A DNA stretch of 64,000 nt from Acidobacteriota bacterium. GTDB lineage: Bacteria; Acidobacteriota; UBA6911. The DNA is taken from positions 929 through 64,928 of the forward strand of contig JAAYAJ010000002.1 in NCBI GenBank assembly GCA_012719455.1, in the 5' to 3' direction. Positions 3,660 through 36,702 of this stretch are shown here, piece after piece. Numbering within the stretch: position 1 is the stretch's first letter; every line of letters begins with the position of its first letter. Below the pieces are notes generated by a model. The model ran no database searches. It worked only from the letters and a program-made list of their open reading frames with translations, and was not told the origin of the DNA. Position numbers and translations under genes: made by a program.

Positions 3660-4418
3660 CTACAACACTTCGATCTCGATCCCATCGGCCTCGTCTTTCC
3701 GCATGGAGAGATGATAGCCTTTCACCTTGATATCTATGGGGTCTCCCAGGGGAGCCACTCGCTTCACCTCAACGACGGCCCCCGGCGTGACGCCCATCTC
3801 GACCATCCTTTTATTTGCTCCTTCCCGGGCATTGACTTTCAGCACTTTGCCTCTTTGCCCCGGTTTCAAATCCTTCAACTTCACTGCTGTCATCGCTTTC
3901 GGACCTCCTTGCCGTCTCCTTCGCTTCACGTCTTCAAGAGTCGCCGAAATGCATCTTTCGCAATTCTCCCGAGTGTCATCATGATCACAGTGGTAACCGA
4001 AACCCGCAATCCACTTGGATCCTCCACGCGGGCAAACCTCGATGAATTCGGCGAATTGGATGAACCGCTCCAGGATAATCTTGGGAATGGAGTGCTCCAT
4101 TTGACAGGCGGCCTTATCGGCGTCACACTCGTCCACCGCAAGAACCTTGACGAAGAAATCACTGAGAACCTCGTGGCGACGGACCACATCCTTGGCGGCA
4201 ACCGTCCCGGCGGGTGTCAGGGAAATCACGTCGTAAGGGGCGTAGTTGATTAGTTCCCTATCGGCAAGTGAGCGAAGCGCGCCTGTCACCGACGAGCTGC
4301 TGACCTTCAGCCGCGTTGCAATATCCTTTGGCCTCACCGCCTGTTTCTCCGCGATGATGTGAAAGATCGCCTCGAGATAATCTTCCAGGCTCGCTGTTAA
4401 CGTTTCAGCCGCTGTCAT
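3660..4418 (-). CDS. DtxR/IdeR-family metal-dependent transcriptional regulator fused to a C-terminal FeoA domain.
   Basis: N-terminal LEDYLEAIFHI...SSSVTGALRSLADRELI matches a DtxR HTH. A Cys-rich insert follows (CPRGGSKWIAGFGYHCDHDDTRENCERC), then a C-terminal FeoA-like KLKDLKPGQRGKVLKV...VKGYHLSMR domain. Confidence 0.8.
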   Translation of the reverse strand: MTAAETLTASLEDYLEAIFHIIAEKQAVRPKDIATRLKVSSSSVTGALRSLADRELINYAPYDVISLTPAGTVAAKDVVRRHEVLSDFFVKVLAVDECDADKAACQMEHSIPKIILERFIQFAEFIEVCPRGGSKWIAGFGYHCDHDDTRENCERCISATLEDVKRRRRQGGPKAMTAVKLKDLKPGQRGKVLKVNAREGANKRMVEMGVTPGAVVEVKRVAPLGDPIDIKVKGYHLSMRKDEADGIEIEVL

Positions 4419-9298: not shown

Positions 9299-10045
9299 AT
9301 GGAAGTGATCGCCCTCCCCGCCCTGGGGGACAACTACATCTACATGATCTGCGGCGACGAGCCTGACCGGGCGACGGCGGTGGACCCGGGCGACGCCCGG
9401 CCCGTCATCGACTGGCTCCGGAAATCGGGCCGCCGACTCGAGGCGATTCTCGCCACCCACCATCACGCCGACCACACGGGGGGCATCCCGCGCCTGCTGG
9501 AACTCTTCCCCGGCATCGAGGTCTCCGCGGGAGCGGGGGACCGGGGACGGGTTCCGGGCCAGACCCGGTTCCTCTCCGAGGGGAACACCGTTTGCGGCGG
9601 CGCGGGCCGGGTGCTGGACGTTCCCGGGCACACCCGCTCCCACGTCGCCTATTTCTTCGACGACGGTCGCGGGGGCGGAGACCTGTTTTCGGGCGATACC
9701 ATCTTCGGCGGCACCATCGGGAACCTGTTCGAGGGAACCCCCGAGGACATGTTCGCCTCGATGCGCAAGATCCGCGCGCTCCCGGACGGCACCCGCATCT
9801 GGTGCGCCCACGAATACACCCTCGAGTTCGTGCGGGAGGCGGCGCGGGTGGACCCGGAGAACACGCTCCTGCAACGGCGGCTGCGGCGGCTGGAATCAGC
9901 CGCGGGCACGCCCACGGTGCCGCTGACGCTCGCGGAGGAGCGGGCCACGAACCCCTTTCTCCGCTGGGACGATCCTGAGCTTACGGCCCGTTTCGGGACC
10001 ACTCCGGGGATCGCGACCTTCCGCCACCTGTGCGCCGTCGCCTGA
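9299..10045 (+). CDS. gloB: Hydroxyacylglutathione hydrolase (glyoxalase II, metallo-beta-lactamase fold).
   Basis: MEVIALPALGDNYIYMI...ATHHHADHTGG (THxHxDH). RBS-like aggagaagagaa upstream. Start chosen at internal M18 of ORF 9248..10045. Confidence 0.8.
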   Translation: MEVIALPALGDNYIYMICGDEPDRATAVDPGDARPVIDWLRKSGRRLEAILATHHHADHTGGIPRLLELFPGIEVSAGAGDRGRVPGQTRFLSEGNTVCGGAGRVLDVPGHTRSHVAYFFDDGRGGGDLFSGDTIFGGTIGNLFEGTPEDMFASMRKIRALPDGTRIWCAHEYTLEFVREAARVDPENTLLQRRLRRLESAAGTPTVPLTLAEERATNPFLRWDDPELTARFGTTPGIATFRHLCAVA

Positions 10046-10108
10046 CGGCCGAATCCTTTTGGGGATGGCGGGATCATCCGCCGGGGTTCGATCAGGCGAC
10101 GTCCGTGG

Positions 10109-10139
10109 CCCGGCCGGGAAGGAACGCTTCCCGGCCGGG
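10109..10139 (+). terminator. Perfect 13-bp GC-rich hairpin downstream of gloB. Candidate intrinsic terminator or attenuator with no U-tract.
   Basis: CCCGGCCGGGAAG gaacg CTTCCCGGCCGGG, 64 nt after the gloB stop. Confidence 0.3.
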
Positions 10140-10363
10140 ATGGATGGGAGCGAAAGCAGGAGGAGGAACGGGGCGATTATACCCCCGCCTTGCATTTCGG
10201 GAGAGCGGGGTTCAAAAAATCGCCAACCGGGAATGATTGACTTTGCCCAAGCTATATCCTAACCTTCCGGAAGCGGCGCTGAGAAGGAGAGCTGTTTCTG
10301 AAAGCGCCGCTCACGCGCGCCGCCCCGGCCCGGGCGGAAAGCCGAGTTTGACAAGGGAGACCC

Positions 10364-11308
10364 ATGGATAGACGCAGATTCCTCGGAATGGCCGGATTGG
10401 CTTGCGGCGGCGCAGCGCTCGCCGGGTGCGGAAAAGGCCCCGGCCCGGGCGACCCCGGATCGGGAGGGACGCCCCCCCAGGGACGCGGCTCGCTTACGGC
10501 GGGTAGGGGAAGAGGGGAGGTGTACGTGGGGAAGGCGGCCGACCCCACGAGCGCCCTCCGGTCGGCGCTGGCCGCGGCCGGGGGCCTTGCCTTCATCCGG
10601 CCCGGAAGCCGCGTCGTGCTCAAGCCGAACGCCGCCTGGTCCCGCACCCCGGCGCAGGCGGCCAACACCGACCCCAGGCTGCTCACCGCCATGATCCAGC
10701 TGTGCCGGGAGGCGGGGGCGGGGAAAATCACCGTCTTCGAGCATACGATCGACCGCCCGGCGGCGCAGGTGCTCGCCGTTTCCGGCATCGCGGCCGCCGC
10801 GCGCCAGGAGGGGGCCGAGCTGATCTACGGCGCCACCGAGGGGGATTTCGCCCCGATCATGGTGCCCCGGGGCAAGATGATGAAGCAGGACACGCTGGCG
10901 CGCGCGGTGCTGGAGGCCGACGTCTTCATCAACATGCCCAAGGCCAAGCACCATTCCCAGACGCAGCTGACGCTCGGGCTGAAGAATCTCATGGGGGTCA
11001 ATTTCAACCGCCAGGCATGGCACTCGGGTCCCGACCTGGCCCAGTACATCGCCGACTACGCCAGCGCCGTGGCCGTCGACCTCACCGTCATGGACGCGTC
11101 CCGCATCCTGGTCACCAACGGGCCGAAGGGGCCCGGCACGATACGTGAGCCGGAGGAAGTGATCGTGTCCTTCGACCCGGTCGCCGCGGACGCCTACGCC
11201 TGCCGCCTGTTCGACCTGGAGCCGTCGTCGGTCGCCTATATCGGGAAAGCGGTGGAACTGGGCCTGGGAGAAGGCAATCCCTCGAACATCGTCGTCAAGC
11301 GGGCCTGA
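10364..11308 (+). CDS. DUF362-domain protein with a Tat signal and lipobox (predicted exported lipoprotein).
   Basis: MDRRRFLGMAGLACGGAALAGCGKGP has twin-arginine RRRFLG followed by LAGC. The body (VVLKPNAAW...VFINMPKAKHH) resembles DUF362. Confidence 0.7.
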   Translation: MDRRRFLGMAGLACGGAALAGCGKGPGPGDPGSGGTPPQGRGSLTAGRGRGEVYVGKAADPTSALRSALAAAGGLAFIRPGSRVVLKPNAAWSRTPAQAANTDPRLLTAMIQLCREAGAGKITVFEHTIDRPAAQVLAVSGIAAAARQEGAELIYGATEGDFAPIMVPRGKMMKQDTLARAVLEADVFINMPKAKHHSQTQLTLGLKNLMGVNFNRQAWHSGPDLAQYIADYASAVAVDLTVMDASRILVTNGPKGPGTIREPEEVIVSFDPVAADAYACRLFDLEPSSVAYIGKAVELGLGEGNPSNIVVKRA

Positions 11309-11332
11309 TCCCCCGCCACCGGAACCGACTAT

Positions 11333-12943
11333 ATGAAAACCGTGCGCAGGACCAGCCAGATCTTTTTCCTCCTCCTCTTTCTCGTGCTCTTCTTCCAGAC
11401 CGCACACCACATCGACTGGGCGGACGGCGGGATGAGCGTATCGGCCTTCCTCCCCGCCGATTTCTTCCTGCGCATCGACCCGCTGCTCGGCTGGACCGCC
11501 ATTGTCGCATCGAGAAGCTTTCCCCTTGCGGTCGCGCTCTGGACCGTGCCCGTGCTCCTTTTAACCCTTCTCTTCGGCCGGGCCTTCTGCGGTTGGGTCT
11601 GTCCGCTCGGGACCTTGGTCGACTGCGCGGACCGCGCCGTGCGCCCGAAGCGGGAGCGCCGCACCAAGCTGGAGCGTTCCCGGCCCCGGCTGAAGTATTA
11701 CGTGCTCGGGGCGGTGGCCGCGAGCGCCCTGCTGGGATCCCAGCTGGTCTGGCTGCTTGACCCGATCGCCCTCACCTTCCGGAGCCTGACGCTCGGGTTC
11801 TTCGCCCCCCTGCAACGGGCGATCCAGTGGCTTCCGGGAACGGGCCGGCTCCAATCGTGGGGGATCTTTCCCGACCAGCAGGCGGCGTACGGAAGCGGGT
11901 TCGCCGCGGCGCTCCTGCTGGGGGCCATCCTTGCCGGCGGGTTCCTCTCCCGCCGGTTCTGGTGCCGCAGCCTCTGCCCGCTGGGGGCGCTGCTGGGCCT
12001 CATCGCCCGCGTCCCCTTCTTCCGCCGCAGGGTCGGAAGCGCGTGCAACGAATGCACCCTCTGCCGGCTCGAATGCAAGATGGACGCGATCGGGGAAAAG
12101 GGGAAGCGCACCTCCACGGCCGAATGCATCCAATGCCAATCCTGCGCCGAACTGTGCCCGCAGGAGGCGATCCGCATGTCCCCCGGGAGACCGGAACCGG
12201 GCCCCAAGCTCAACCTCGACCGGAGGCGCCTCCTCGCCGGCGTCGGCGTGGGCACCGCCTGGGGACTGGGCGCGGCTTCGGCCCTGGCCCGGCGCCCCAC
12301 GCGCGACGGCGAAAGCCGCATCACCGGCAAACGCCTCATCCGCCCCCCCGGGTCGGTCGCCGAGGAGCTCTTCACCGAGCGCTGCGTCCGCTGCGGCGCC
12401 TGCATGAAGGTATGCCCGACCAACGGCTTGCAGCCGGCGATCGTCGAAGGGGGCCTGGGCGCGATCTGGACTCCCGTGTTGACGCCCAGGGTGGGGGAAT
12501 GCAGCCAGAACTGCAACCTGTGCGGCGAGGTGTGCCCCACGGACGCCATCGAACCCTTCACCATCCCCGAAAAGGAGCACCTGTTCATCGGGCGCGCCGT
12601 CATCAACCGCTCTTCGTGCGTCGTCTGGGAATCTGGCAAACAGTGTCTCGTCTGCGACGAGGTGTGCTCCTACAGCGCCATCTACTGGCTGGACAAAAAC
12701 GGCTCCGCCGTCCCGTACCCGGCCGACGGGGGCGATGCCGAACCGCTCCAGGGGTTCCCCTACGTGGATCCCGCCCGCTGCGTGGGTTGCGGCATCTGTG
12801 AGTACAACTGCCCCGCCGGCGGCCCCGACGCCGCCATCCGCGTGACGCGCGACGGGGACAAGCGGCACCTGTCCCGCGCGGAACAGGAGGCGTGGCAGGC
12901 GGCCAACTGGACCGAGCGCGAGGGAAAACCTTCCCTCCGTTAG
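11333..12943 (+). CDS. Membrane-bound polyferredoxin (NapH/MauN-type 4Fe-4S binding protein).
   Basis: N-terminal TM helices carry a CGWVCPLG motif. Several CxxCxxCxxxCP ferredoxin motifs follow: CNECTLCRLEC, CIQCQSCAELCP, CVRCGACMKVCP, CNLCGEVCP, CVGCGICEYNCP. Confidence 0.7.
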   Translation: MKTVRRTSQIFFLLLFLVLFFQTAHHIDWADGGMSVSAFLPADFFLRIDPLLGWTAIVASRSFPLAVALWTVPVLLLTLLFGRAFCGWVCPLGTLVDCADRAVRPKRERRTKLERSRPRLKYYVLGAVAASALLGSQLVWLLDPIALTFRSLTLGFFAPLQRAIQWLPGTGRLQSWGIFPDQQAAYGSGFAAALLLGAILAGGFLSRRFWCRSLCPLGALLGLIARVPFFRRRVGSACNECTLCRLECKMDAIGEKGKRTSTAECIQCQSCAELCPQEAIRMSPGRPEPGPKLNLDRRRLLAGVGVGTAWGLGAASALARRPTRDGESRITGKRLIRPPGSVAEELFTERCVRCGACMKVCPTNGLQPAIVEGGLGAIWTPVLTPRVGECSQNCNLCGEVCPTDAIEPFTIPEKEHLFIGRAVINRSSCVVWESGKQCLVCDEVCSYSAIYWLDKNGSAVPYPADGGDAEPLQGFPYVDPARCVGCGICEYNCPAGGPDAAIRVTRDGDKRHLSRAEQEAWQAANWTEREGKPSLR

Positions 12944-17232: not shown

Positions 17233-17640
17233 ATGCCCCGGGACGAAAAGGAAAAAACCAAACCCGGCGACGGGAAACCATCTCTTTCACGCAGGGAGTT
17301 CGCCCTCGCCTCGCTGGCCGTGCTGGGGGCTCAACCGCTCTCCACGGCCGAGGATCCGCCGCCGCTGTCGGATGAGGCGCGGGCGATGAAGCTGGTCCTG
17401 GACGAAGGGGTGCGGGAGCGGCTCGAGGAGCGCCACATCACCGAGGAGGACATGCGGCGCGTCCTCTGCCACGCGGAGCAATCGGGCGAAAAACTGTGCC
17501 GCCCCCAGGGGGGGCGATTCCTGGCCAAGCTCCGCATGGCCGAGACCTACTTTTACGTCGAATACGAGCCCCGGGATGGTGCTTTCCGCGTCCGGACGGC
17601 CTACGCGCACCGACTGCTGCTCGAAGGAGACCCCGGATGA
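17233..17640 (+). CDS. Small hypothetical protein; N-terminal Tat-like segment plus a DUF4258-like C-terminal half.
   Basis: SRREFALASLAVLGAQPLSTA resembles a twin-arginine signal. C-terminal ...HITEEDMRRVLCHAEQSGE...YFYVEYEPRDGAFRVRTAY resembles small toxin-like DUF4258 proteins. First gene of a four-gene operon. Confidence 0.45.
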   Translation: MPRDEKEKTKPGDGKPSLSRREFALASLAVLGAQPLSTAEDPPPLSDEARAMKLVLDEGVRERLEERHITEEDMRRVLCHAEQSGEKLCRPQGGRFLAKLRMAETYFYVEYEPRDGAFRVRTAYAHRLLLEGDPG

Positions 17641-17822
17641 CTGATTGGTTCTGCTGCAAGGACAAGGTCGCCATGGAGGAAAAGGAGCTGCTCGTCAGCT
17701 ACATGCTGCTGCGCCAGTTCGTCCCCGGGATGAAGTGCCCCGTCTGCGGCGTGGAGTACCTCACCGAGGAGGTGGTGACCACCATCGTCAACGAGGCTGA
17801 AGACGCCCTCGAACAGAAATAG
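17637..17822 (+). CDS. YgiT/MqsA-type zinc-finger small protein (61 aa).
   Basis: MTDWFCCKDK...GMKCPVCGVEYLTEEV carries CxxC...CPVCG motifs. ATGA overlap with the preceding gene. Start at internal M48 of ORF 17496..17822. Confidence 0.45.
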   Translation: MTDWFCCKDKVAMEEKELLVSYMLLRQFVPGMKCPVCGVEYLTEEVVTTIVNEAEDALEQK

Positions 17823-17829
17823 GACCCGC

Positions 17830-19167
17830 ATGGCCGAAGTCGTTTCGCGAACCGAGAGCCTCTGTCCCCACTGCCTGCGGCGCGTCCCCGCCGAGCGGGT
17901 GGCCGTGGGGGACGAGCTGTTCCTCCGCCGCAGCTGCCCGGAGCACGGCGAGGTGGAGCCCGTGCTGCTCTGGCGCAACCGCACCATCCCCTACTCCCTC
18001 TGGAGCCGCCCCGGGGACCCTTCGGCTCTTCCCCCACCCGATCCGCCCGGAGACTGCCCGCGCCTTTGCGGCATCTGCGCCGGGCACCGGCAGAGCACCT
18101 GCAGCGCCATCGTGGAAATCACCGCCCGCTGCGACCTCCGCTGCCCCGTCTGCTTCGCCGCCTCCGGGCCCGCGGCCGGCCCCGACCCCGACCTGGCCGG
18201 GCTGGAGCGCCTCCTCGGGCGGACGTTCGCGCGGGCCGGGAACTGCCCCCTGCAGCTGAGCGGCGGGGAACCCACCCTCCGGGACGACCTGCCCCTCATC
18301 GTGCGCCGGGCGCACGAGATCGGTTTCGATCATGTCCAGGTCAACACCAACGGCCTGCGTCTCGGGCGCGACCCGGAATTCGCCCGCGCGCTGGCCGATG
18401 CGGGGGTCACCGATTTTTTTCTCCAGTTCGACGGGGTCAGCGACGACGTCTTCCGCCGCCTGCGGGGAGCGCCGCTCCTGGACCTCAAGCTCGGGGCCCT
18501 CGAGCGCTGCCGGGAACTGCAGGTAGGCGTCATCCTCGTCCCGACCCTCGTCAAGGGAGTGAACGACGCCCAAATCGGCGAACTCATCGAGTTCGCCAAG
18601 GCGTGGATGCCGGTCGTGAAGGGGATCCACTTCCAGCCCCAGGCCTGGCTCGGCCGCTACCCGCATTCGCCCCGCAACAACGACCGGGTGCTGATCCCCG
18701 ACATCCTCGAGGCGATCGAGCGCCAGACAGGGGGGGAAATCGAGACAGGGAATTTCATCCCCCCCGGTTGAGAGGAACCCCACTGCTCCTTTTCCGCTCT
18801 CTCCGTGCTGAGAGACGATGGGAGGCTGGTGGCGACCACGCGTTTCGAGCGCGCCGGACCGGCCGGGGACGACGCCGCCGAAAAATCGCGCGCCTACGTG
18901 CGGCGCCACTGGAAATTCGCCGAACCCGGACCCGCTTCCGCCGCCCCGCCGCCCGGTCCGGACAACCTCTTCGAGCGGGTCCGCACCCATGTGCTCTGCA
19001 TCTCCGGCATGGCGTTCCAGGATGCCTGGAACATCGACCTCGAGCGGCTCCGGCGCTGCTGCATCCATGTCGCGAGTCCAACCCGGGGTCTGGTCCCCTT
19101 CTGCGCCTGGTACCTGGTCGACACGCACGGACGCCGACTTTACGGGGAAACCGCCCATGTTCCTTGA
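17830..19167 (+). CDS. Radical-SAM enzyme with an N-terminal zinc-ribbon-like motif and a C-terminal Cys-rich extension. It contains a single in-frame TGA at 18769-18771, so it is either a selenocysteine candidate or a disrupted gene.
   Basis: CPHCLRR...SCPEHG; radical SAM CDLRCPVC; GGEPTL. ORFs 17830..18771 and 18805..19167 are in the same frame. The only stop between them is TGA, and the downstream codons EEPHCSF... are open. Confidence 0.6.
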
Positions 19168-20542
19168 ACAGTGGCTGCACGGCGTCATCCGGTCCGGCCT
19201 TGAAAACGACCCCGGTCCCCGCGCGCGCGTGCAGGCCGGACCCGCCCCGGGGCGCGCCGAGGTGGTGCGGTACCAGGGGGCGTTGCTGGCCCGGGCGGTG
19301 CGCTACGCGGCGGCGCACAGCTCCTTTTACAGGGATCTCTTCCGAAAAAGCGGCATCCGCCCGGAGGAGATCCGCGGGTGCGCCGACCTCGGGCGCCTCC
19401 CATTCACCAGGCAGGAGGATGTGGCCCGCGCCCCCTACCGTTTCCTGTGCCTTTCCCGGGCGCAAATCGAGCGGGTCCATACCTTCGTCACCTCCGGCAC
19501 GACGGGACCCCGGAAGAAGGTTTTCTGGACCCGGGGGGATCTCGGGCGCATCGTCCGTTTCATGGCCGCCGGCATCGGGACGGTGGCCGGCAGGCAGGAC
19601 GTCGTACACATCTGCCTTCCCGACGGCCCTCCTTACAGCCAGGCGGACCTGCTCGGACGCGGGGTGGCCGCCGTCGGCGCCCGGGCGCTGGTGGCCGGCA
19701 CCGGCCGCTCCGCGCCCGAGCACCTGGAGTGGATCCGGCGGCACGGCAGCACGGTGCTGTTCGGCTGCGCCGGTCCCCTCTACCGGCTCACGCGCGAACT
19801 GGAGGCGCTGTGCGACCCGTCCCGGTGCGGGGTGCGCGTCCTCTTTCTCACCGCCGAGTATGTCCCCGCAGCGCGCAGGCGGGAGTTGGAAAGAACCTGG
19901 AAATGCCGGGTGCGGACGCACTACGGGCTCACCGAAATGGGGCTCGGGGTGGCCGTGGAGTGCGAGGCCGGGCACGGTTACCACTTCAACGAAGCCGACC
20001 TCCTGCTTGAGATCATCGATCCCGTGACGCTCGAGCCGGCGGCGCCCGGCGAGGAGGGGGAACTGGTGTTCACCACCCTCAACCGCGAGGCGATGCCCCT
20101 TTTGCGCTACCGCACCGGCGACATCTCCCGCTGGATCCCGGGGCCCTGCCCCTGCGGCGCCCGGAGCCTGCTCCGGTTCGACGCGGTCCGAAAACGCCGG
20201 GAATCGATAGTGACGATCGGCGCGGGAGAGGAGATTCACCCAACGCTGTTCGACGACGTCCTCTACGCCCTCCCCGGGGTGCTGGACTACCGGGTGGAGG
20301 TGACGCGGGACGGGGAACGGCCGCGCCTCGATTTCGGGATCGAGCTGCTTCCGAAAGCGGGGGACACGGCGCACGCCATCGCCGCGCGCCTCCACGGGCA
20401 CCCCCTCGTCCGGCGGCTTCTCCACCGGGGGGAGATGGCGCCCCCGGGGGTGAGCCTCCTGCCGCCGGGAGCGCTGAAAACGGCGGACCGGGCCAAGAAA
20501 CTGGTCGTGGACCGCCGCGACCGACTCAAAGCGCGGGCTTGA
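19157..20542 (+). CDS. Phenylacetate-CoA ligase / coenzyme F390 synthetase-like (PaaK-family) adenylate-forming enzyme.
   Basis: TSGTTGPRKKVFWTRGDL AMP-binding motif; YGLTEMG; C-terminal domain. 11-nt overlap with the radical-SAM gene. Start at internal M114 of ORF 18818..20542. Confidence 0.8.
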   Translation: MFLEQWLHGVIRSGLENDPGPRARVQAGPAPGRAEVVRYQGALLARAVRYAAAHSSFYRDLFRKSGIRPEEIRGCADLGRLPFTRQEDVARAPYRFLCLSRAQIERVHTFVTSGTTGPRKKVFWTRGDLGRIVRFMAAGIGTVAGRQDVVHICLPDGPPYSQADLLGRGVAAVGARALVAGTGRSAPEHLEWIRRHGSTVLFGCAGPLYRLTRELEALCDPSRCGVRVLFLTAEYVPAARRRELERTWKCRVRTHYGLTEMGLGVAVECEAGHGYHFNEADLLLEIIDPVTLEPAAPGEEGELVFTTLNREAMPLLRYRTGDISRWIPGPCPCGARSLLRFDAVRKRRESIVTIGAGEEIHPTLFDDVLYALPGVLDYRVEVTRDGERPRLDFGIELLPKAGDTAHAIAARLHGHPLVRRLLHRGEMAPPGVSLLPPGALKTADRAKKLVVDRRDRLKARA

Positions 20543-21263
20543 CCGCCATGATCGAGGCGCTCCCCCATTTCCGGTCGACGTGCGGGACCATGCTCCCGAT
20601 GTCCCACCCCTTTTCTTCCAGGAACCCGAGGACCTCCCGGGCCCGATAGAGGTGCGTCACCTCCACCTGGATCCGCTCGAAACCGGCCCCGGCGAGCGCG
20701 CGGGCGTATTCCCGCTCCTCGAGCGCCCCTCCGAGACACCCCACCCAGCGGCCCACCCCCGCGCGGATCCCCGCGGGGATGTCGCCCCGGGTGACGATAT
20801 CACAGGCAGCCAGCCGCCCGCCGGGCGCCAGGACGCGGAAAGCCTCGGCCAGCACCCGGCCCTTGTCGACGGAAAGGTTGATGACGCAGTTGGAAATGAC
20901 GACATCGACCGTGCCGTCCCGGAGCGGAATGCGCTCGATTTCGCCCCTGACCAGTTCGACGCCGGCCGTGCCCTTAAGGTTGCGGGCGGCCAGGGCGATC
21001 ATCTCCTCCGTCATGTCCAGGCCGTAGACCCTGCCCCCCGGCGCCACCCGCCGGGCCGCCAGCAGGCAGTCGCGCCCCCCGCCGCTTCCAAGATCCAGCA
21101 CCACGTTCCCGGGCCCGAGCCCGGCCAGGGACACGGGGTCGCCGCAACCGAGCGACACCTGCACGGCCGCCCCCCCCTCCCGCCGGCTCCTCTGGAGCGC
21201 CCGCGCGGCGATCGCCCCGTACCTGCGCCGCACTTCCCCGCCGACATCCATGCCGTCCTCCAT
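20526..21263 (-). CDS. Class I SAM-dependent methyltransferase, arsenite methyltransferase (ArsM)-like.
   Basis: SLGCGDPV...VLDLGSGGGRDC...VYGLDMTEEM...VISNCVINLSVDKGRVLAEAFRVLAPGG carries ArsM-type Cys/SAM motifs. Confidence 0.6.
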   Translation of the reverse strand: MEDGMDVGGEVRRRYGAIAARALQRSRREGGAAVQVSLGCGDPVSLAGLGPGNVVLDLGSGGGRDCLLAARRVAPGGRVYGLDMTEEMIALAARNLKGTAGVELVRGEIERIPLRDGTVDVVISNCVINLSVDKGRVLAEAFRVLAPGGRLAACDIVTRGDIPAGIRAGVGRWVGCLGGALEEREYARALAGAGFERIQVEVTHLYRAREVLGFLEEKGWDIGSMVPHVDRKWGSASIMAVKPAL

Positions 21264-21480
21264 CCGGAGCCGCCGCCAATCCCCGCGGCCCCTTTGGATG
21301 AAACGTTACCATCATGGAGGACGTAATTAAAAGCGATAGGATTGAATGGTTGACAACCTGTCCCCGTTTGTTCCACAGTGGTAGCCGTCCACCCGCACGC
21401 GGATGACGAGGCAATGTTTGTCCATGGGTCAACCCCGAAGACGACACTCATTACATAATATCGAGCGAAGGAGTAACGCC

Positions 21481-22290
21481 ATGTCCGGAGGCAAGAAAAC
21501 CGACAGCACGGAAACGGCTGCCAAAAAGAAATTTACAAGACGCGATTTTCTGGTCACCGGCGGAACCGTGGTCGCGGTCGATGCCCTGATAGCCACGACT
21601 CCCGCCGCTGCGGTCGCCGCGTCCCCCGCGCCACCGCCTGAAAAAGTCCAGGCCTACCCTGCATCCAAGGGGTACCTGGTCTACGACAGCAAGAAATGCA
21701 TCGGGTGTACGACCTGCATGCTCAGCTGCTCGCTGACCCACTACGGGGTGCAGAGCCTCTCGCTGGCGCGCATCCAGATCATACAGGACTCCTTCGGAAA
21801 ATTTCCGACCGACCTGGAGATGGCCCCCTGCCGCCAGTGCAAGTACCCCCCTTGCGTGCAAAGCTGCCCGGTCCAGGCCTGTTTCGTCGACGAGGCCAAT
21901 GGCAACGTCCGCAGGATCGACACCGACAAATGCATCGGCTGCAAGACCTGCCTCAAGATGTGCCCCCAGCAGCCGCACCGGACCGTCTGGAACCACGAAA
22001 TCAAGAAATCCACCAAGTGCGACCTCTGCCTCGAGACCCCTTACTGGAACGAAAAGGGGGGGATCGGCGGCAAGCAGGCGTGCGTGGAATCGTGTCCTAT
22101 GAAAGCCATCAAGTTCGTCAGCGAAATGCCCGACCAGAAGGAAACCGATGGCTATAACGTCAACCTACGCAACGAACATTGGCTCAAGCTGGGGCTGGTG
22201 GACGACAGCAGAATCGTACCGCCTGGATCGCGCAGCATGGGCGGCGGCGCACCGAAAGCCAAAATGCAGGCGCCCAAAGCGAAAGCATAA
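21481..22290 (+). CDS. Tat-exported four-cluster [4Fe-4S] ferredoxin-type subunit (DmsB/YdhX-like).
   Basis: TRRDFLVTGG twin-arginine motif. Four CxxCxxCxxxCP-type motifs. RBS aaggag at 21467-21472. Start at internal M27 of ORF 21403..22290. Confidence 0.8.
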   Translation: MSGGKKTDSTETAAKKKFTRRDFLVTGGTVVAVDALIATTPAAAVAASPAPPPEKVQAYPASKGYLVYDSKKCIGCTTCMLSCSLTHYGVQSLSLARIQIIQDSFGKFPTDLEMAPCRQCKYPPCVQSCPVQACFVDEANGNVRRIDTDKCIGCKTCLKMCPQQPHRTVWNHEIKKSTKCDLCLETPYWNEKGGIGGKQACVESCPMKAIKFVSEMPDQKETDGYNVNLRNEHWLKLGLVDDSRIVPPGSRSMGGGAPKAKMQAPKAKA

Positions 22291-22304
22291 GGAGGAGACA
22301 TATC

Positions 22305-24407
22305 ATGCCAGGCGGATACACAGGTAAGATCTTAAGAGTCAATCTCACGACCAAGCAGGTCAGCACCATTCCCACGGAGAAGTACGTGGAATTCGGCGGC
22401 GGCCACGGCATCGGTTCGGCCGTCTTCTTCGACCTGGTCGGCGACCAGCTCCCGTTCGACGCCTTCGATCCCCGCAACCTCATCATCATGATGGCGTCCC
22501 CCTTCTCGGGCACCTTCATGCCGGGCAGCGGACGGTGCGAAGTCCAGGGGCTGGGGCCGATGCTCTACCCGATCGAGTGGTTCGGCCACAGCAACTTCGG
22601 GGGGCGGTTCACCGCCCAGATGAAATTCGCCGGCTGGGACGGCATCGTCGTGGAAGGCGCCTCGGACAGTCCGGTCTACATCGACGTCATCAACGACCAG
22701 GTGAAGATCGAGGACGCCACCAACGGCGTCTGGGGAATGGACACCTGGGACGCGCAGCAGGAAATCTCGCGCCGTGCCGTCCCCGGCCTCAAGCAGGGCG
22801 AATGGGCCGAACTGGCCCAGAATTGCTTCACCACCCAGATCCCCGCGGTCGTGGCCTGCGGTCCCGCGGGCGAACGCAAGAGCCGGCTGGGTGCGCTGCT
22901 TCACGGCCCGGGCTCCCAGGCCGCCCTGTGCGGATTCGGCGGCGTCTTCGGGTCCAAGAACCTCAAGGCCATCAGCTTCCTCGGCACCGGCAGCGTCCCT
23001 ATCGCCGACCCCAAGGCCTTCATGGACGCCCGGCTCTGGTTCCGCCAGTTCCAGTGGGACGTGGATAACCCGCGCGACGCCGAGATTTTCGAAGGGGGGG
23101 GGTATTCCCTGATCAACGGCGCCCCGAGCGGCGGCAACGTGACCAACGGCGGGCCCAACCGGGTGCCCGCGCGCGCGGCCGCCTGCGCTTCCTGCCCCAG
23201 GGGATGCAAGATGCGGCTTGCCACCGGCGACAGCAACGAGGCGGTATGCGCCGGGACCATGGTGGCCAACGTCGGCGGCGGCGGCATGTTCGCCGCCTTC
23301 GGCCGCAAGCCGGACCCGAACGCCATGCCCACGGCGCTCAGCCAGAAGCTGACGCGGCAGGCCAACGATCTCATGCACCGCTACGGTCTCGGCCATTGGC
23401 AGGTAATGGCCACCCGCGGCTACATCGAAGCCCTGGTGCGCGAAGGCGTCATCGGCAAGGGAAAGCAGATCGATTTCGAGCTGCCCCCCGCGGGAAGCTT
23501 CGCCTACCACGAAACGATGTTCCGGACCATCGCCCTGCGCGAGGGGCCTCTCGGCGCCTTGGCGGCCGAGGGGGCGGCCCGGATGGCCGAAAAGCTGGGG
23601 CGCTACCAGAAGGACGTCTCGAGCGGCATGCTGAGGTTGACCTACTACGGGACCCAGGAGCACTACGATTCCGCCACCCAGGTGGAATGGGGCTACGGCT
23701 CCATCCTGGGGGAGCGCGACCTGATGCTGCACCAGATGGCCAACTACCCGCTGCACTGGATGGCGCAGTCGGGCAACCCCTACCTCGACGCCGAACAGGC
23801 CTCCAAGCTTTACGCCGAGGCGATGGTCCCCTACGAGGACGACCGCTACCTGGTCGATTACGGGGAAGGACCGACGGGGATCTACTCCGATTCCAAGGTC
23901 AAGCAGGTGGCCTGGGTCAAGCACTACGAGAAGTTCTGGATCGGCGCGGGCGGGTTCTGCGGATGGCGCTGGCCGCAGTGCATCACCAACAACACCGCCG
24001 ACCGGCGGGGGGCCACCCCTCATGCGGAGCCGAGGTTCTGGAACGCCGTGACGGGCCAGAACAAGACCTTCGCCGACTACATGGAACTGGGGCACAAGAT
24101 CTTCACCCTCGACCGGGCCATCTGGGCGTTGCAGGGCCGGACGCGGGACATGGAGGTCTTCCCCGACTACGTGTACGACCAGGAAAGCAGGGGCAGCGTC
24201 CAGCCGATGGTGGTCGACGGCAAGTGGACATACGCCACGGGGCAGGGACGCAAGCTGGACCGTGCCAAGGTCGAGGACTGGAAGACCCGCTTCTACAAGT
24301 TCGAGGGGTATAATCCCGCCACCGGGATCGCCACCCGGGAGACGCTTGAGAAGATGGGGATGAAGAAGGTAGCCGACACCCTCGAGAAGCGGGGCAAGCT
24401 GGGCTAG
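22305..24407 (+). CDS. Aldehyde:ferredoxin oxidoreductase family (W/Mo-pterin) enzyme, YdhV-like, 700 aa.
   Basis: MPGGYTGKILRVNLTTKQV...GGGHGIG AOR N-terminal domain. No signal peptide of its own. RBS aaggagg upstream. Start at internal M43 of ORF 22179..24407. Confidence 0.85.
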   Translation: MPGGYTGKILRVNLTTKQVSTIPTEKYVEFGGGHGIGSAVFFDLVGDQLPFDAFDPRNLIIMMASPFSGTFMPGSGRCEVQGLGPMLYPIEWFGHSNFGGRFTAQMKFAGWDGIVVEGASDSPVYIDVINDQVKIEDATNGVWGMDTWDAQQEISRRAVPGLKQGEWAELAQNCFTTQIPAVVACGPAGERKSRLGALLHGPGSQAALCGFGGVFGSKNLKAISFLGTGSVPIADPKAFMDARLWFRQFQWDVDNPRDAEIFEGGGYSLINGAPSGGNVTNGGPNRVPARAAACASCPRGCKMRLATGDSNEAVCAGTMVANVGGGGMFAAFGRKPDPNAMPTALSQKLTRQANDLMHRYGLGHWQVMATRGYIEALVREGVIGKGKQIDFELPPAGSFAYHETMFRTIALREGPLGALAAEGAARMAEKLGRYQKDVSSGMLRLTYYGTQEHYDSATQVEWGYGSILGERDLMLHQMANYPLHWMAQSGNPYLDAEQASKLYAEAMVPYEDDRYLVDYGEGPTGIYSDSKVKQVAWVKHYEKFWIGAGGFCGWRWPQCITNNTADRRGATPHAEPRFWNAVTGQNKTFADYMELGHKIFTLDRAIWALQGRTRDMEVFPDYVYDQESRGSVQPMVVDGKWTYATGQGRKLDRAKVEDWKTRFYKFEGYNPATGIATRETLEKMGMKKVADTLEKRGKLG

Positions 24408-24432: not shown

Positions 24433-24476
24433 GGGGCCGCGGGTCGCGAGTGCGACCCGCGGCCCCTTTTTTATTT
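24433..24476. terminator. Bidirectional rho-independent terminator between the AOR gene (+) and nifS (-).
   Basis: Perfect 15-bp stem GGGGCCGCGGGTCGC gagt GCGACCCGCGGCCCC followed by TTTTTTATTT. Confidence 0.7.
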
Positions 24477-25691
24477 CGCTTCGAGCATCCCGAGCGCATC
24501 CGGATGGGGGGCGTTGACGGCGTTGTCCCAGTAGGGGGAAAGCGTGCGCAGGTTGGCTACGATGCCCGGGAACACTTCGAGCACCCGGTCGATCTCCGCG
24601 TCGGTGGTATAGCGGCTCAGGCTGAAGCGGACCGAGCCATGCACCGCCGTGAAGGGCACTTTCATCGCCCGCAGCACGTGCGAAGGCTCGAGCGACCCGG
24701 AGGTGCAGGCCGACCCGCTCGAGGCGCAGATCCCGTACTCGCCGAGCTGAAACAGCATCCCCTCCCCCTCGATGAAGTGAAAGGAGATGTTCAGGGTGTT
24801 CGGCAGGCGCGGGGCCCCGCCGCCGTTGATCTCGACCGAAGGGATCCTCTCCACCAGGCCCCGCTCCAGCCGGTCGCGGAGGCGCCCGATCCGGGCCTCG
24901 TCCCCCGGCGCGTTGGCCGTCGCGAGGCTGAAGGCCCGGCCGAGGCCCACGATGTAAGGGACGTTTTCGGTCCCCCCGCGCCGGCCCGCCTCCTGGTGCC
25001 CCCCGAGTAGAAACGGACGCATCCGGGTGCCGCGGCGCAGGTAGAGGACGCCCACCCCCTTGGGTGCGTGCAGCTTGTGCCCCGAAAAGGAGAGAAGGTC
25101 CACGTAAGGAAACCCCCGCACCATATCGATGGGCAGCTTCCCCACCGTCTGGGTGGCGTCGGTGTGAAAGACGATGCCCGGGTCGGTCTCCTTGACGATG
25201 CGCGACAGCTGGTCGATGGGAAACACCACGCCGGTCTCGTTGTTGGCGTGCATGATCGACACCAGCAGGGTCTCCGGCGAGAGCGCGCGGATGAACCCCG
25301 GCATGTCGAGATTACCGTTCCGGTCCACCTCCACGTACGTCACCCGGCAGCCGTTTCGTTCCATCTCCCGGCAGACCTCCAGCACGGCCGGATGTTCCAC
25401 CGTGGTCGTGATGATATGTTTCCGGTTCGGGTTGGCGCGCACGACCCCCTGGATGGCGGTGTTGTTGCTTTCAGTCGCGCACCCGGTGAAAAGGATCTCG
25501 CTCGGTTCCACCCCCCCGAGGCAGTCGGCGATCGTCCGGCGCGCGGCGGCGACCGCCTGGCTCGTCCGCCCGGCGGGTTCGTACATTGAACTGGGGTTGA
25601 AATAGTCTTCGGTGAAAAACGGGATCATCGCCTCGTAGACTTCCGGGGCGATCCGCGTCGTGGCGTTGTTGTCAAGATAGATAATATCCAT
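24471..25691 (-). CDS. nifS: Cysteine desulfurase (NifS/IscS, class V aminotransferase).
   Basis: MDIIYLDNNATT...SFSGHKLHAPKGVG (PLP lysine)...SSGSACTSG active-site Cys loop. Confidence 0.9.
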   Translation of the reverse strand: MDIIYLDNNATTRIAPEVYEAMIPFFTEDYFNPSSMYEPAGRTSQAVAAARRTIADCLGGVEPSEILFTGCATESNNTAIQGVVRANPNRKHIITTTVEHPAVLEVCREMERNGCRVTYVEVDRNGNLDMPGFIRALSPETLLVSIMHANNETGVVFPIDQLSRIVKETDPGIVFHTDATQTVGKLPIDMVRGFPYVDLLSFSGHKLHAPKGVGVLYLRRGTRMRPFLLGGHQEAGRRGGTENVPYIVGLGRAFSLATANAPGDEARIGRLRDRLERGLVERIPSVEINGGGAPRLPNTLNISFHFIEGEGMLFQLGEYGICASSGSACTSGSLEPSHVLRAMKVPFTAVHGSVRFSLSRYTTDAEIDRVLEVFPGIVANLRTLSPYWDNAVNAPHPDALGMLEAK

Positions 25692-25697
25692 GCCCGC

Positions 25698-26666
25698 CTA
25701 TACCTCGATCACCCGGATCCGCTCGTCCACCCGTTCCCTCAGGATCCGCTCCACCATCTTTTTCAGCGTCCGGGAGGCGCCGGAGCAGTGGGCGCAGGCT
25801 CCCTGGAGCCGACAGTAGACGATCATCCCCTTGATGTCCACGATCTCGATGTCCCCGCCGTCGAGCTTCAGGGAGGGACGGACGAACTCCTCCACCACCT
25901 TCTCCACCTTCTTCGAAAACTGGTAGGGGGAGAATTCGGCGGGAGGCGGCGCCTCGAGCGATACCAGCGGAAACACCGGCGCCGCCGGGGTGTCGCTCGC
26001 AGCCGCCGTGCTTTCCCCCTGCCAGGCCCGGTCGAGCAGGTCCTGCAGCCCGCCGGGGACATGGTGGCAACTGCTGCAAGCGCCGCCGGCCTTGATGGCG
26101 TTGGTGATCTGCGGGATCGTCCGCAGGTTGAGCTCCTTGATCTTGCGCAGGATGTAGGGTTCGGTCAGGGAAAAGCACTTGCACACCATGCGCCCCTCCT
26201 CGGTATCCCGACCCTGCAGGTCGATACCCAGCGCTTCCAGGTCCACCCCGCGCCGCTGCGCCCAGTTGAAGACCGCCGCTTCCAGCGCTTCCGCGCCCAT
26301 GACGGAGCAGTGGATCTTCTGCTCCGGGAGCCCCCCGAGGTATTCCACGATGTCGCTGTTCTGGATGCTCAGCGCGGAGATCGGGGTGTACTCCCCCTGC
26401 TCGATGATGGAGCACAGCGCCTCCGAAGCGGCGATGGCGGAAGTGCAACCGAAGGTCAGGTATTTCGCCTCGGTGATGATGTCCTGGGTTGGATCGCTGG
26501 GATGGCGCTTGACACGGAAGGTGAACCGCATCGCATCCCCGCAGGCTATCGATCCGTGCTCGCCCATCCCGTCGGGGTTCTCGATTTCGCCCAGGTGGGT
26601 GCCCGGCCTGCCGTGCACCGCGTCCATGAACAGCTGCTTGGTCTTATCGCTGTATTCCCAATCCAT
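25698..26666 (-). CDS. nifU: NifU (IscU-like N-terminal domain, BFD-like [2Fe-2S] middle domain, NifU C-terminal domain).
   Basis: MDWEYSDKTKQLFMDAVHGRPGT...GSIACGDAMRF...C-terminal CxxC motifs. Start at internal M27 of ORF 25698..26744. Confidence 0.9.
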   Translation of the reverse strand: MDWEYSDKTKQLFMDAVHGRPGTHLGEIENPDGMGEHGSIACGDAMRFTFRVKRHPSDPTQDIITEAKYLTFGCTSAIAASEALCSIIEQGEYTPISALSIQNSDIVEYLGGLPEQKIHCSVMGAEALEAAVFNWAQRRGVDLEALGIDLQGRDTEEGRMVCKCFSLTEPYILRKIKELNLRTIPQITNAIKAGGACSSCHHVPGGLQDLLDRAWQGESTAAASDTPAAPVFPLVSLEAPPPAEFSPYQFSKKVEKVVEEFVRPSLKLDGGDIEIVDIKGMIVYCRLQGACAHCSGASRTLKKMVERILRERVDERIRVIEV

Positions 26667-26854
26667 CGTCCGACTCCGCGTGATTGCCAGTAGTTCCGGC
26701 CCGGGCGGCGCCCGGCGTGACACCCATCGGCGACGCCCCACCACCTCAGGCCGGAGGAACTTTATAATATAGCGCTTCGGCGGGCTTCAGGCAAACGTGC
26801 AGGTGGAGGGGAAGCGGCGGGAGTGTGGTAGAATGCCCCAAGCGGGCGGCCCCT

Positions 26855-30866: not shown

Positions 30867-32024
30867 TCACTCGCCGGCCGCGTCCGCGACGGCGCCGAAG
30901 ATGACGACACTCCGCCCGGCGACCGCCGCCGCCGCGTGCCGCGTCCAGTCCAGGTCGACCGTCCCCTCCGGCAGCGGGTGGACCCGCAGGGCTACGACAG
31001 CCTTGACGCAGTAATCGGAATTCTTCTCGTAATCCCGGTTGAAGCGGTGGCGCTCCGGGACCCGCGCCACGCAGGCCTCGGTGGCCCGGCTGGAGATGTC
31101 GGGGATTCCCGGGTTTTTCATCTGGGGGGCGACGACGCGCAGCGGCCCGCTCCCCACCAGCCGCCCTTCGGCCGAGATGGAGGCGGCGGGATAGGGCTCC
31201 CCGTTGACGGAGAAGGAGAGCAGGATGTCGGCGTCGGGCAACGGCACCCCCTCCTTCAGCCCCCGGGCGCCGTAGCGCACCCAGCCGCATTCCCCCAGGG
31301 TCTCCTCGTCCAGGCCCATGACCGGGGCCGCCTGCGGATATTTCCTCCGCAGCTGCTCGATCGAAAAGGTCGTGGTATAGCCGTCGAGGCTGATGACGTC
31401 GACGGCCGTCGCCCCCTTGCGCAACCCGGCGGCCTCGAGCACGTCGATGAGGCGGAAGCCGCCGATGTCCGAATAGCTGTCGCCTTCCCTGGATTTGCTC
31501 ACGTTGACGAACAGGGCCTGCTCGAACAGCGGAAGACCGCGCCGTTTCAGCTCATCCAGGGAAAGGAGGACGTGCGGCGCCTCGGGGTAACCGGGACGGC
31601 TCGCGGCATCCCCGGGGTGGGTCGCCGCCCGGATCTCCTCGGCGTTGGAAAACCCGTCCCGGTCGGAATCTAACGCGGCGATGGCGGCGAACGCCCCGGC
31701 GTTGCGCCCCGACCCGAGGTAGTCTTTTCCAAAGGAATTGAGAGTGTCCGCCTTCCTGCGGCCGTAATCGGTCACCTGGTGGCAGGAATCGCAGCTGCTG
31801 AGCACCACGGCGTCCTTCGCCCCGGGGGGCGGCGCCGAAATCCGGCTGTGACAGACATCGCACGTGTCCATCCGGGTCCCCTCAAGGTGCGGATAAGCGC
31901 CGACGAAGATTTCCGAGTCCTGTTCCTGGTGGGTCCGGTAGGCGGCCGTTCCGGCGCCGGCCACGAGGAGGAGCGCCGCACCCAGCACGGCCGTTGCAGG
32001 TTTGATTTTGCGGAGGAAATGCAT
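30867..32024 (-). CDS. Dihaem c-type cytochrome fused to a sulfite-oxidase-family (Oxidored_molyb-like) domain.
   Basis: Signal peptide MHFLRKIKPATAVLGAALLLVAGAG. Two CxxCH motifs (CDVCH, CDSCH). DSDRDGFSNAEE Ca-loop-like segment. C-terminal ...SLDGYTTTFSIEQL...NGEPYPAASISAEGRLVGSGPLRVVAPQM. Confidence 0.55.
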   Translation of the reverse strand: MHFLRKIKPATAVLGAALLLVAGAGTAAYRTHQEQDSEIFVGAYPHLEGTRMDTCDVCHSRISAPPPGAKDAVVLSSCDSCHQVTDYGRRKADTLNSFGKDYLGSGRNAGAFAAIAALDSDRDGFSNAEEIRAATHPGDAASRPGYPEAPHVLLSLDELKRRGLPLFEQALFVNVSKSREGDSYSDIGGFRLIDVLEAAGLRKGATAVDVISLDGYTTTFSIEQLRRKYPQAAPVMGLDEETLGECGWVRYGARGLKEGVPLPDADILLSFSVNGEPYPAASISAEGRLVGSGPLRVVAPQMKNPGIPDISSRATEACVARVPERHRFNRDYEKNSDYCVKAVVALRVHPLPEGTVDLDWTRHAAAAVAGRSVVIFGAVADAAGE

Positions 32025-32397
32025 ACTCTCTTCTCCCGGTAGCGGCCCTGCGGCCGATAATGTCCGCGCGTCCATGCGCGGGAAGATCTTACCTAAAGCC
32101 ACCGCCGCTTACAACTATGGCGCCAATAGGACAAAATAACACCTAAAAACGCTATTTGACCTGGATCACGACCAAAATCTCCAGCAGAGCGATCCGATCG
32201 CCTCCTGTTCCCCTCCCGCTTGCGTTCTGGACAATCCTTCACGGAAGAAATAGTACTACTAGCATGGATCCTATTGCCAACGACGGAACACCCGCACCCG
32301 ACAAAACCTGTTGCCGCCGCGGCGCGGCTGTGCGATGGTGGGGCCTGCGGTGGCGCCTCCGGACTCCCGCCAGCGTCGCCGACACGGGGACTGACCG

Positions 32398-35664: not shown

Positions 35665-36702
35665 TCAGCCGCCGATGCTGATCATCTCGATTTTCCTGCG
35701 CGAACCGGGCTCGTACTCACCCGCCTTCATCGCCTCCAGGCGCTCCTCGGAATAGCGGTCGGCCCTCGCTTCCCAGGCGGACCGGATGGTCGCCAGGATC
35801 TCCCGGTCGTCGGCCCCCGTGCGCAGCAGCCGCTTCAGGTCGACACTCCGGTCGGAGAAGAGGCAGAGGACGAGCCTGCCGTCGGCCGTCAGGCGCGCGC
35901 GCGTGCAGCCGATGCAGAAGGGCTCCGTCACCGAGGCGATGACGCCGATGTCGCCCCCCCGGTCGACGTAGCGGTAATTGACCGCGGGTGCGCTCGGGTC
36001 GCTCCGGCCGGCCTCTTCGAGGGGATAGCGCGCGTGGATGATCTCCAGGATCTCCCGCTTGGACATCATCCGCTCCGACACCCACTGGTTGGAGTTGCCC
36101 ACGTCCATGAACTCGATGAACCGGAGCCAGAACCCGTTCCGGCGCGCGAAATCGACCAGGGGAAGGATGTCGTCGTCGTTGACACCGCGCTGGACGACGG
36201 AATTGATCTTGATGGGCGCGAGCCCCAGGAGCCGGGCGGTCATCAGCCCTTCCAGGACGCTGGCCAGGTTGTCACGCTTCGTCAGGGCGCGGAACCTGGC
36301 GGGATGGATCGTGTCGAGGCTCACGTTGATCCGTCGTAGGCCGGCGCGCATCAGCCGCGCCGCCTGATTCTTCAGGTGGGAGGCGTTGGTCGTCAGGGAA
36401 AGGTCCCTGAGCCCCTCGAGACCGGCGAGGGCGGAAACCAGGGTGTCCAGCCCGTGCCGGAGCAGCGGCTCCCCCCCGGTGATCCGGATCTCCTCGACCC
36501 CCGATCGGAGGAAGAGCCCGGCCAGGCGCGTGATCTCCTCGAAGGTGAGGATCTCCCTCCGGTCGATCCACTCGTACTGCTCGAGCGGCATGCAGTAGCT
36601 GCAGCGGAAGTTACACCGGTCGGTGACCGATATCCTCATCTCCCTCAGTTCGCGCCCGAGGGTGTCCTTGATGCCGACGATGCCGACGCGATCGACTTCC
36701 AT
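35665..36702 (-). CDS. moaA: GTP 3',8-cyclase MoaA (molybdenum cofactor biosynthesis, radical SAM).
   Basis: ISVTDRCNFRCSYCMP; GGEPLL; C-terminal CIGCTRARLTADGRLVLCLF motifs. Start at internal M17. Confidence 0.9.
   Translation of the reverse strand: MEVDRVGIVGIKDTLGRELREMRISVTDRCNFRCSYCMPLEQYEWIDRREILTFEEITRLAGLFLRSGVEEIRITGGEPLLRHGLDTLVSALAGLEGLRDLSLTTNASHLKNQAARLMRAGLRRINVSLDTIHPARFRALTKRDNLASVLEGLMTARLLGLAPIKINSVVQRGVNDDDILPLVDFARRNGFWLRFIEFMDVGNSNQWVSERMMSKREILEIIHARYPLEEAGRSDPSAPAVNYRYVDRGGDIGVIASVTEPFCIGCTRARLTADGRLVLCLFSDRSVDLKRLLRTGADDREILATIRSAWEARADRYSEERLEAMKAGEYEPGSRRKIEMISIGG

Follow-up and report, generated by a model that had tools for sequence, protein, structure and literature searches.

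Does an in-frame UGA within a gene for a radical S-adenosylmethionine (SAM) enzyme end the protein, or does it encode selenocysteine (Sec)? The question is raised by a locus at positions 17830..19167 (+) of a 64,000-nucleotide stretch of contig JAAYAJ010000002.1 (Acidobacteriota bacterium, assembly GCA_012719455.1), which we refer to as a whole as the window. An initial annotation had described one reading frame interrupted by TGA at 18769-18771, and had left a selenocysteine candidate, a pseudogene or fresh disruption, and a sequencing error side by side as explanations. Translation confirms the interrupted frame: it comprises 445 codons counting Sec314, runs from an ATG with AGGA 5 nucleotides (nt) ahead of it to a stop TGA at 19165-19167, and has a single internal stop, codon 314 (TGA, 18769-18771). 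The open reading frame (ORF) listed separately at 18805..19167 merely starts at the first GTG past that stop, an effect of the way ORFs are listed; from 18772 onward the frame contains no stop until the terminal one. The context of codon 314 in the window protein is ...IETGNFIPPG*EEPHCSFSALSV..., and with the UGA read as Sec the residues around it would read FIPPG-U-EEPHCSFSALSVLR. Comparison with related sequences suggests that the internal UGA almost certainly encodes selenocysteine, and we hold it to be highly probable that 17830-19167 is one intact gene, trsS, which encodes the whole of the radical SAM selenoprotein TrsS, with UGA314 decoded as selenocysteine. The family, its selenoprotein status and the neighbourhood of TrsS are already curated, so the find is not new and its novelty is low.

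The assignment to TrsS comes from database scans in which Cys was substituted at codon 314. The window protein scores 534.1 bits against the NCBIfam model NF045646, "radical SAM (seleno)protein TrsS" (curated equivalog cut-off 490), and aligns with it end to end (its residues 7-438 cover positions 2-440 of the 441 in the profile). The second-best model, that of the archaeal tetraether lipid synthase Tes (NF045702), gives 321.4 bits against a cut-off of 450 and covers profile positions 2-318 of 486 only; because this score lies below the cut-off and the match is not full length, the protein is TrsS and not Tes. Its Pfam matches are Radical_SAM (PF04055, 76 bits) and an N-terminal HMPTM-type zinc ribbon (Zn_ribbon_HMPTM, PF23545, 58 bits). 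The RefSeq protein WP_207648151.1, which shares a 90% cluster with one of our homologues (P0074), is named 'radical SAM (seleno)protein TrsS'. With the curated family the window gene shares a score above cut-off, length, domain order, a DVU_1553 ligase and a DVU_1557-type gene as neighbours, and a single Sec/Cys; nothing essential differs, although the window cassette has a protein of 135 amino acids (aa) instead of the large NF045663 flavoprotein. TrsS is listed as a one-Sec selenoprotein in Table 1 of prokaryotic selenoproteins (PMC13188914, citing Haft & Tolstoy 2025), as one of the two radical SAM selenoprotein families listed so far. The radical SAM selenoprotein TIGR04167 (GxxU motif) is found in the same table and also has one Sec, but it is a separate, older-listed family whose Sec motif and position differ from those of TrsS, and it is not among the best 25 of 32 NCBIfam matches to the TrsS protein.

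We then read the residue at the UGA column in relatives, using 159 loci gathered from species-representative genomes and metagenomes. One locus (L011) is without the HFQP-type motif and hence has no entry in the residue tally. In the 158 that remain, Cys (60 loci) is the commonest state of the column, followed by TGA (15), Ala (13), Gly (6), Pro (3), Arg and Val (2 each) and Ser (1); no residue could be assigned by motif search in 56 of the 158, mostly more distant relatives. The 110 full-length database homologues carry Cys in 81 cases, Arg in 24 (the subclade with PRRR(Q/K)DSHCGFS), Ser in 3, and Ala and Val in 1 each. Aligned full-length relatives read FIPPGCExxxCSFS, with Cys at the UGA column, and the check for a Cys at this position in orthologues, proposed in the initial annotation, therefore favours selenocysteine. 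The same is true of the 15 further loci with TGA at this column and an intact downstream frame. Their proteins are 54-86% identical to the window protein, and those with a taxon label are all Acidobacteriota metagenome-assembled genomes (MAGs). All Sec forms found make up one clade of 16 genes, counting the window's. Taken together, the alignments speak for Sec being facultative at this column within the TrsS family. Gene calls for the nearest relatives in a protein search (61-99% identity) give 311-313 aa without exception, and those for more distant relatives 445-490 aa.

Apart from one singleton, local tblastn turned up no further in-frame stop in the family, and none that is shared. The singleton is an in-frame TGA at 4069-4071 of locus L035 (an uncultured Syntrophaceae MAG, contig CAZVOU010000023.1), which falls in the variable linker of a Cys-form TrsS homologue, in a column that is Gly in relatives (SL*YWD versus SLGPWD or SLGGWD). 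Because it occurs in one genome, we read it as probably a real disruption or an assembly error, in contrast to the conserved UGA314.

The part of the gene that follows the UGA (18772..19164, +) is open and conserved in all 16 Sec-form genes. The downstream frame is complete in 15 of them (117-146 codons), and in the sixteenth (L082) it is still open where the contig ends. CSFS, YVRRHW and CISGMA are kept in 16/16, and the complete genes also keep FQDAWNIDLERL, CC(I/V)HV and PFC. Amino-acid identity to the window protein is 58-86% before the UGA and 55-79% after it, and Nei-Gojobori ratios of nonsynonymous to synonymous substitution (dN/dS) are 0.16-0.35 after the UGA compared with 0.14-0.38 before it, in agreement with the earlier suggestion that the frame is maintained by selection. 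The further C-terminal Cys (CC, FCAW) to which attention had been drawn are present as well. These are C319, C390, C410, C411 (the 'CC') and C425 ('FCAW'), of which C319, C410 and C425 do not vary among 111 aligned sequences (those of the 110 homologues and of the window protein) and C411 hardly does. Likewise correct was the reported overlap of 11 nt with the next gene, a ligase, whose ATG at 19157 precedes the trsS stop at 19165-19167. TGA is the commonest ordinary stop codon among the window genes, so we take the genetic code to be standard, with no reassignment.

Downstream of the in-frame UGA (codon 314, 18769..18771, +), for which the same column is TGA in the 15 other loci and Cys in most other homologues, lies a hairpin that resembles a selenocysteine insertion sequence (SECIS): UCUCUC-CGUGCU-GAGAGA, 18798..18815 (+). 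It had been noticed from the window alone as a hairpin of 6 base pairs (bp) about 25 nt after the UGA; it begins 26 nt past the UGA, has 6 bp in the window, and turns out to be the invariant core of a conserved element, in which the stem core CUCUC/GAGAG and the loop CGUGYU are identical in 16/16 Sec forms. Its apical loop begins 32 nt past the UGA, with G at the second loop position. Counted from the U of the UGA, nucleotides +14 to +48 are almost invariant in the 13 distinct Sec-form sequences (the invariant hairpin core spans +31 to +46), and third codon positions just upstream of this interval and further downstream of it vary freely. Where the amino acid is the same, the fraction of identical codons is 0.85 for codons +4 to +15 compared with 0.46 for the rest of the gene, and these codons form the sole peak of synonymous conservation along trsS. 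Of the 159 loci, the 15 Sec loci and no others contain the 16-nt hairpin motif CTCTCCGTGYTGAGAG, and the window has it once, at 18799.

The 3' arm of the hairpin imposes AGA on Arg328; of the 611 Arg codons in 12 genes just 5 are AGA, fewer than of any other kind. For the CSF of the CSFS peptide the Sec forms are fixed at TGC-TCC-TTT, and TTT is the minor Phe codon of this genome (44 versus 280); Cys forms that encode CSFS use TGC or TGT, five different Ser codons, and TTC oftener than TTT, and are without the hairpin. The ALSVLRED peptide, which is specific to the Sec forms, is thus partly a shadow of RNA conservation. An RNAalifold consensus of the 13 distinct sequences further proposes a proximal helix (18770..18794, +) between GAGAGG (18770-18775) and CUUUUC (18789-18794), that is, +2 to +7 with +21 to +26, so that two bases of the UGA would be paired. 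None of the six pairs is lost, and the changes within them comprise two that are one-sided (G-U to A-U or G-C) and zero compensatory double changes. The Ser and Phe codons TCC and TTT, fixed in Sec forms and variable in Cys forms, are in keeping with it; we include this helix in the putative recoding element only tentatively.

For bSECISearch the spacing from UGA to loop is 16-37 nt, and the 32 nt observed here fall inside this range; by general geometry, rather than by comparison with a profile, the TrsS hairpin fits a bacterial SECIS. Like the canonical bacterial SECIS of the Escherichia coli fdhF type, it is a hairpin that lies within the gene shortly 3' of the UGA and has a G at one of its first two loop positions. 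It differs from that type in having a short, AU-rich upper stem without significant stability, in that a second helix may sequester the UGA itself, and in that it matches no curated RNA family. We regard the hairpin, which lies at the distance expected of a bacterial SECIS, as a putative SECIS.

Several observations weigh against selenocysteine at codon 314. Neither selA, selB or selD nor a gene for tRNA-Sec was found in the 64-kb window or in any collected locus, and ARAGORN returned no tRNA-Sec in either; Sec decoding by the organism is assumed for this reason. The lack of selA/B/C/D within 64 kb is itself uninformative. UGA314 is no more than a candidate for the Sec site published for TrsS. 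At the level of the RNA, the hairpin is short (5-6 bp), and z-scores of the minimum free energy (MFE), with shuffles as the reference, lie between -1.9 and +0.9, so that folding is no more stable than that of shuffled sequence (for the hairpin alone, -7 kcal/mol and z = -1.3). The 13 sequences contain zero compensatory base-pair changes in the conserved element, and Rfam gave no match, either for the whole window at the gathering threshold or for 18650-18950 at a permissive E-value. Because the z-scores are not significant, it is conservation and not energy that speaks for an RNA element, and because the element is invariant, and hence without covariation, the pairing is putative. A further point concerns the protein: the placement of residue 314 by a C-terminal [4Fe-4S] cluster, discussed below, is deduced from its closeness to C319 along the chain and from a local alignment, weak in this stretch (0.9 bits), to GDGT-MAS, the archaeal tetraether synthase, which has the closest solved structure.

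How well would explanations other than selenocysteine account for the same data? One base change, from TGC or TGT to TGA, would suffice for a sequencing or assembly error to create a false stop. Four independent metagenome assemblies (three from JGI, one from ENA) nevertheless match the gene over all 1338 nt with 0 mismatches, the TGA of codon 314 included, and these same assemblies differ from the window by 8-13 mismatches over 20.9 kb; in addition, the exact 313-aa product of the window is indexed in 35 blocks of a public collection. The identical gene and TGA in the four assemblies exclude a base-calling error, and we give an artefact of sequencing or assembly, which the initial annotation had allowed for, next to no chance. 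That annotation had thought a fresh disruption equally conceivable, that is, a pseudogene or recent nonsense mutation in which the UGA terminates and the 3' part decays. The public gene calls, which stop at residue 313 and place a separate ORF of 110-120 aa behind it, would agree with this, as would the fact that no Sec machinery is seen in the window. Decay is hard to reconcile with a TGA that persists at one column in 16 genes, 54-86% identical to the window's, with a downstream frame that is open in every complete copy and in which C319, M394, C410 and C425 are invariant, or with dN/dS values after the UGA that match those before it. A true singleton disruption, of which the TGA of L035 in one genome is an example, looks different. 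We consider loss of the gene very improbable.

The C-terminal part could also be made without selenium, either as a second polypeptide of a split enzyme, from an internal start such as GTG 18805, or by RNA-stimulated read-through in which a near-cognate tRNA inserts Trp or Cys. GTG 18805 does exist, and both the Sec machinery and the binding of SelB by the conserved element are presumed. A start at 18805 would, however, lose EEPHCSFSALS, including the invariant C319, which is conserved as protein in all Sec forms, and there is no ribosome-binding site or conserved start before 18805 in the relatives. The pseudogene and split-gene readings both fail because the downstream frame is conserved, because dN/dS is similar on the two sides of the UGA, and because GTG 18805 loses C319. 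Read-through, for its part, would have to contend with a UGA that aligns specifically with Cys, with a family that is curated as Sec/Cys, and with TGA as the usual stop codon under a code that is not reassigned. A split enzyme or selenium-free read-through is in our estimation unlikely.

Selenocysteine insertion at UGA314 is thus the reading that we prefer. It was also the leading one in the initial annotation, and each of the refuting conditions named there that could be checked came out on its side. Under this model, the conserved mRNA element after UGA314 (the invariant hairpin and possibly the proximal helix) would act as a putative bacterial SECIS and would recruit SelB with Sec-tRNA(Sec). 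Translation would run on for 131 codons past the UGA and couple into the overlapping ligase gene, and TrsS would work in a conserved cassette together with the small zinc-ribbon protein, the PaaK-like adenylating ligase and the methyltransferase encoded beside it.

What might a selenocysteine do at this position? The best PDB sequence match of TrsS is GDGT-MAS (7TOL, E = 1.8e-76). An AlphaFold2 model of a Cys homologue with 57% identity (P0006; pLDDT 87.5, pTM 0.91) has its best Foldseek matches in 7TOM (TM-score 0.76) and 7TOL (0.70). GDGT-MAS has four metal sites (PMC9433317). The first is rubredoxin-like (C9X2C12X20C33X2H36), the second is an N-terminal [4Fe-4S] cluster whose ligands are C73, C77, C80 and a His, and the third is the radical SAM cluster; the fourth, a C-terminal [4Fe-4S] cluster in which the Met439 ligand is labile, lies across the active-site pocket. 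TrsS has corresponding motifs: the rubredoxin-like site C12X2C15X20C36X2H39, the N-terminal [4Fe-4S] ligand motif C76/C80/C83/H86, and the radical SAM cluster motif CX3CX2C at C101/C105/C108. Residues C101/C105/C108 and C12/C15/C36/H39 are invariant among the 111 aligned sequences, as is M394, which is aligned to Met439 of GDGT-MAS; TrsS residues 384-428 align to residues 449-493 of the GDGT-MAS chain. From this homology TrsS is predicted to have the four-cofactor architecture of GDGT-MAS, with a C-terminal [4Fe-4S] cluster probably held by C319, C410 (or C411), C425 and Met394.

The likeness to GDGT-MAS/Tes (7TOL/7TOM; NF045702) therefore extends to the CX2CX20CX2H site, the CX3CX2C...H motif of the N-terminal cluster, the CX3CX2C motif of the radical SAM cluster, and the conserved Met that serves as a ligand of the C-terminal cluster. 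The differences are that TrsS is about 60 residues shorter, that the region of the second lipid pocket of GDGT-MAS is short and variable in TrsS, that GDGT-MAS appears from the weak local alignment to have Ser at the Sec/Cys column, and that the TrsS cassette contains an adenylating ligase and a methyltransferase and no lipid genes.

In the P0006 model, the position of Sec314 lies in a loop five residues ahead of C319, before a beta-hairpin. Because whole subclades carry Arg, Ala or Gly there, residue 314 is not an obligatory cluster ligand, and the likeliest role for Sec314 would be that of a redox-active or radical-handling selenol/thiol beside the C-terminal cluster. An intermediate reported for GDGT-MAS has a substrate carbon bonded to a sulfur of one of the [4Fe-4S] clusters, and an extended-data legend describes the C-terminal cluster as the favourable partner for this carbon-sulfur intermediate (PMC9433317); Sec314 would thus lie beside the counterpart of the cluster by which GDGT-MAS captures the substrate radical. 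It is conceivable, though doubtful, that Sec314 is a working partner of the C-terminal cluster in TrsS, either as a switchable fourth ligand in competition with Met394 or as a radical-capturing atom, in which case a C-Se intermediate would be the counterpart of the C-S(cluster) intermediate in GDGT-MAS. If this were true, the bacterial enzyme TrsS would make C-C or C-chalcogen bonds on a substrate that is activated as an acyl-adenylate or with CoA. In any case the Sec is predicted to lie in the domain that does cluster-sulfur chemistry in GDGT-MAS, and the clade provides a natural Sec/Cys pair for the study of that chemistry.

What the locus adds to the curated description of TrsS is modest: a putative recoding element in one clade (Acidobacteriota where labelled), a Sec column that appears to be facultative, and a predicted Sec in a domain like that of the C-terminal cluster of GDGT-MAS. 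The practical value is in the repair of annotation, for the mis-annotation is systematic, and all public calls that we examined for the Sec clade split trsS. In L160-L167, for example, trsS (locus coordinates 10001-11338) is called as a 313-aa radical SAM protein plus an ORF of 110-120 aa that is left unannotated and lacks a Pfam match. Broad BLAST surveys for bacterial 'Tes homologues' would pick up proteins of the TrsS type; one such survey required more than 20% identity and a length of more than 400 aa (PMC8941075). Sec forms called at 313 aa would drop out of length-filtered (>400 aa) surveys of this kind, and domain-based or length-filtered surveys mis-count Sec-form TrsS.

The genes around trsS form a recognizable cassette, in the order small protein, DVU_1557-type protein, TrsS, ligase and often methyltransferase, which is kept in Sec and Cys forms and in many phyla. 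The first is the 135-aa protein (17233..17640, +), homologous to the C-terminal ~85 residues of NF045663 (72 bits, positions 673-757 of 759), a 759-aa 'dicluster-binding protein' family with the model name diclust_near_Sec. A homologue of the 135-aa protein adjoins trsS in 12/15 Sec-form and 50/60 Cys-form loci. The Sec clade keeps this C-terminal domain of the NF045663 flavoprotein/dicluster family as a separate small protein, and in the window its N-terminus is twin-arginine-like, SRREFALASLAVLGA. It is followed by a 62-aa zinc-ribbon protein of DVU_1557 type (DUF7479; 17634..17822, +), for which NF045645 is the best match at 32.3 bits, below the cut-off of 60, with an alignment over 2-60 of 60; PF24292 is found on an identical gene, and a gene of this type stands beside trsS in 13/15 Sec-form loci. 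Downstream of trsS is an AMP-dependent (PaaK-like) ligase of the DVU_1553 family (19157..20542, +; NF045666, 334.5 bits against a cut-off of 300), which adjoins trsS in 10/15 Sec-form and 53/60 Cys-form loci. A convergent, ArsM-like SAM-dependent methyltransferase (20526..21263, -) scores 245.5 bits against NF008823 (cut-off 263) and 88.9 against NF045667 (cut-off 155); it matches the DVU_1556 family weakly and is present in 6/15 Sec-form and 38/60 Cys-form loci.

Directly after the cassette (21403-24407, +) are an NrfC-like 4Fe-4S protein and a tungsten-type aldehyde:ferredoxin oxidoreductase (AFOR_N/AFOR_C). This synteny is also found in L001, L005, L081, L099 and L160-L166, the closest relatives sampled, and is rare in other lineages. 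Genes for Fe-S and molybdenum/tungsten cofactors are common around the cassette, and the window also contains a NifS/NifU Fe-S assembly pair (24471-26744, -), a GEGP-motif dihaem protein (30867-32102, -) and MoaA (35665-36750, -).

Other selenoprotein candidates in the window were screened as pairs of same-frame ORFs, with high GC content at third codon positions (GC3), that are split by one TGA. Two such sites were rejected because the ORFs are adjacent complete genes: the TGA at 11306-11308, between an Npun_F2552-like gene and a NapH/NapG-like fusion (10364-12943, +), and the TGA at 40758-40760, between genes for phosphoglucomutase and thioredoxin reductase (39771-42419, -). The ArsM-like gene was rejected as a UGA-extended selenoprotein on account of several stops upstream of its N-terminus. 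Two models of selenium-dependent molybdenum hydroxylases, TIGR03311 and TIGR03313, match a molybdenum-binding subunit of the xanthine dehydrogenase family (54943-57426, +) weakly and in part, with scores far under their cut-offs; as they stand, these matches are not evidence of selenium use. Beyond this gene, at 57436-63760 (-), lie the [FeFe]-hydrogenase maturases HydF (57436-58896) and HydG (58754-60178) and then two histidine kinases, one of which (61760-63760) has an N-terminal [FeFe]-hydrogenase-like domain and looks like a sensory hydrogenase-kinase fusion; the maturases and the hydrogenase-like kinase point to an anaerobic lifestyle.

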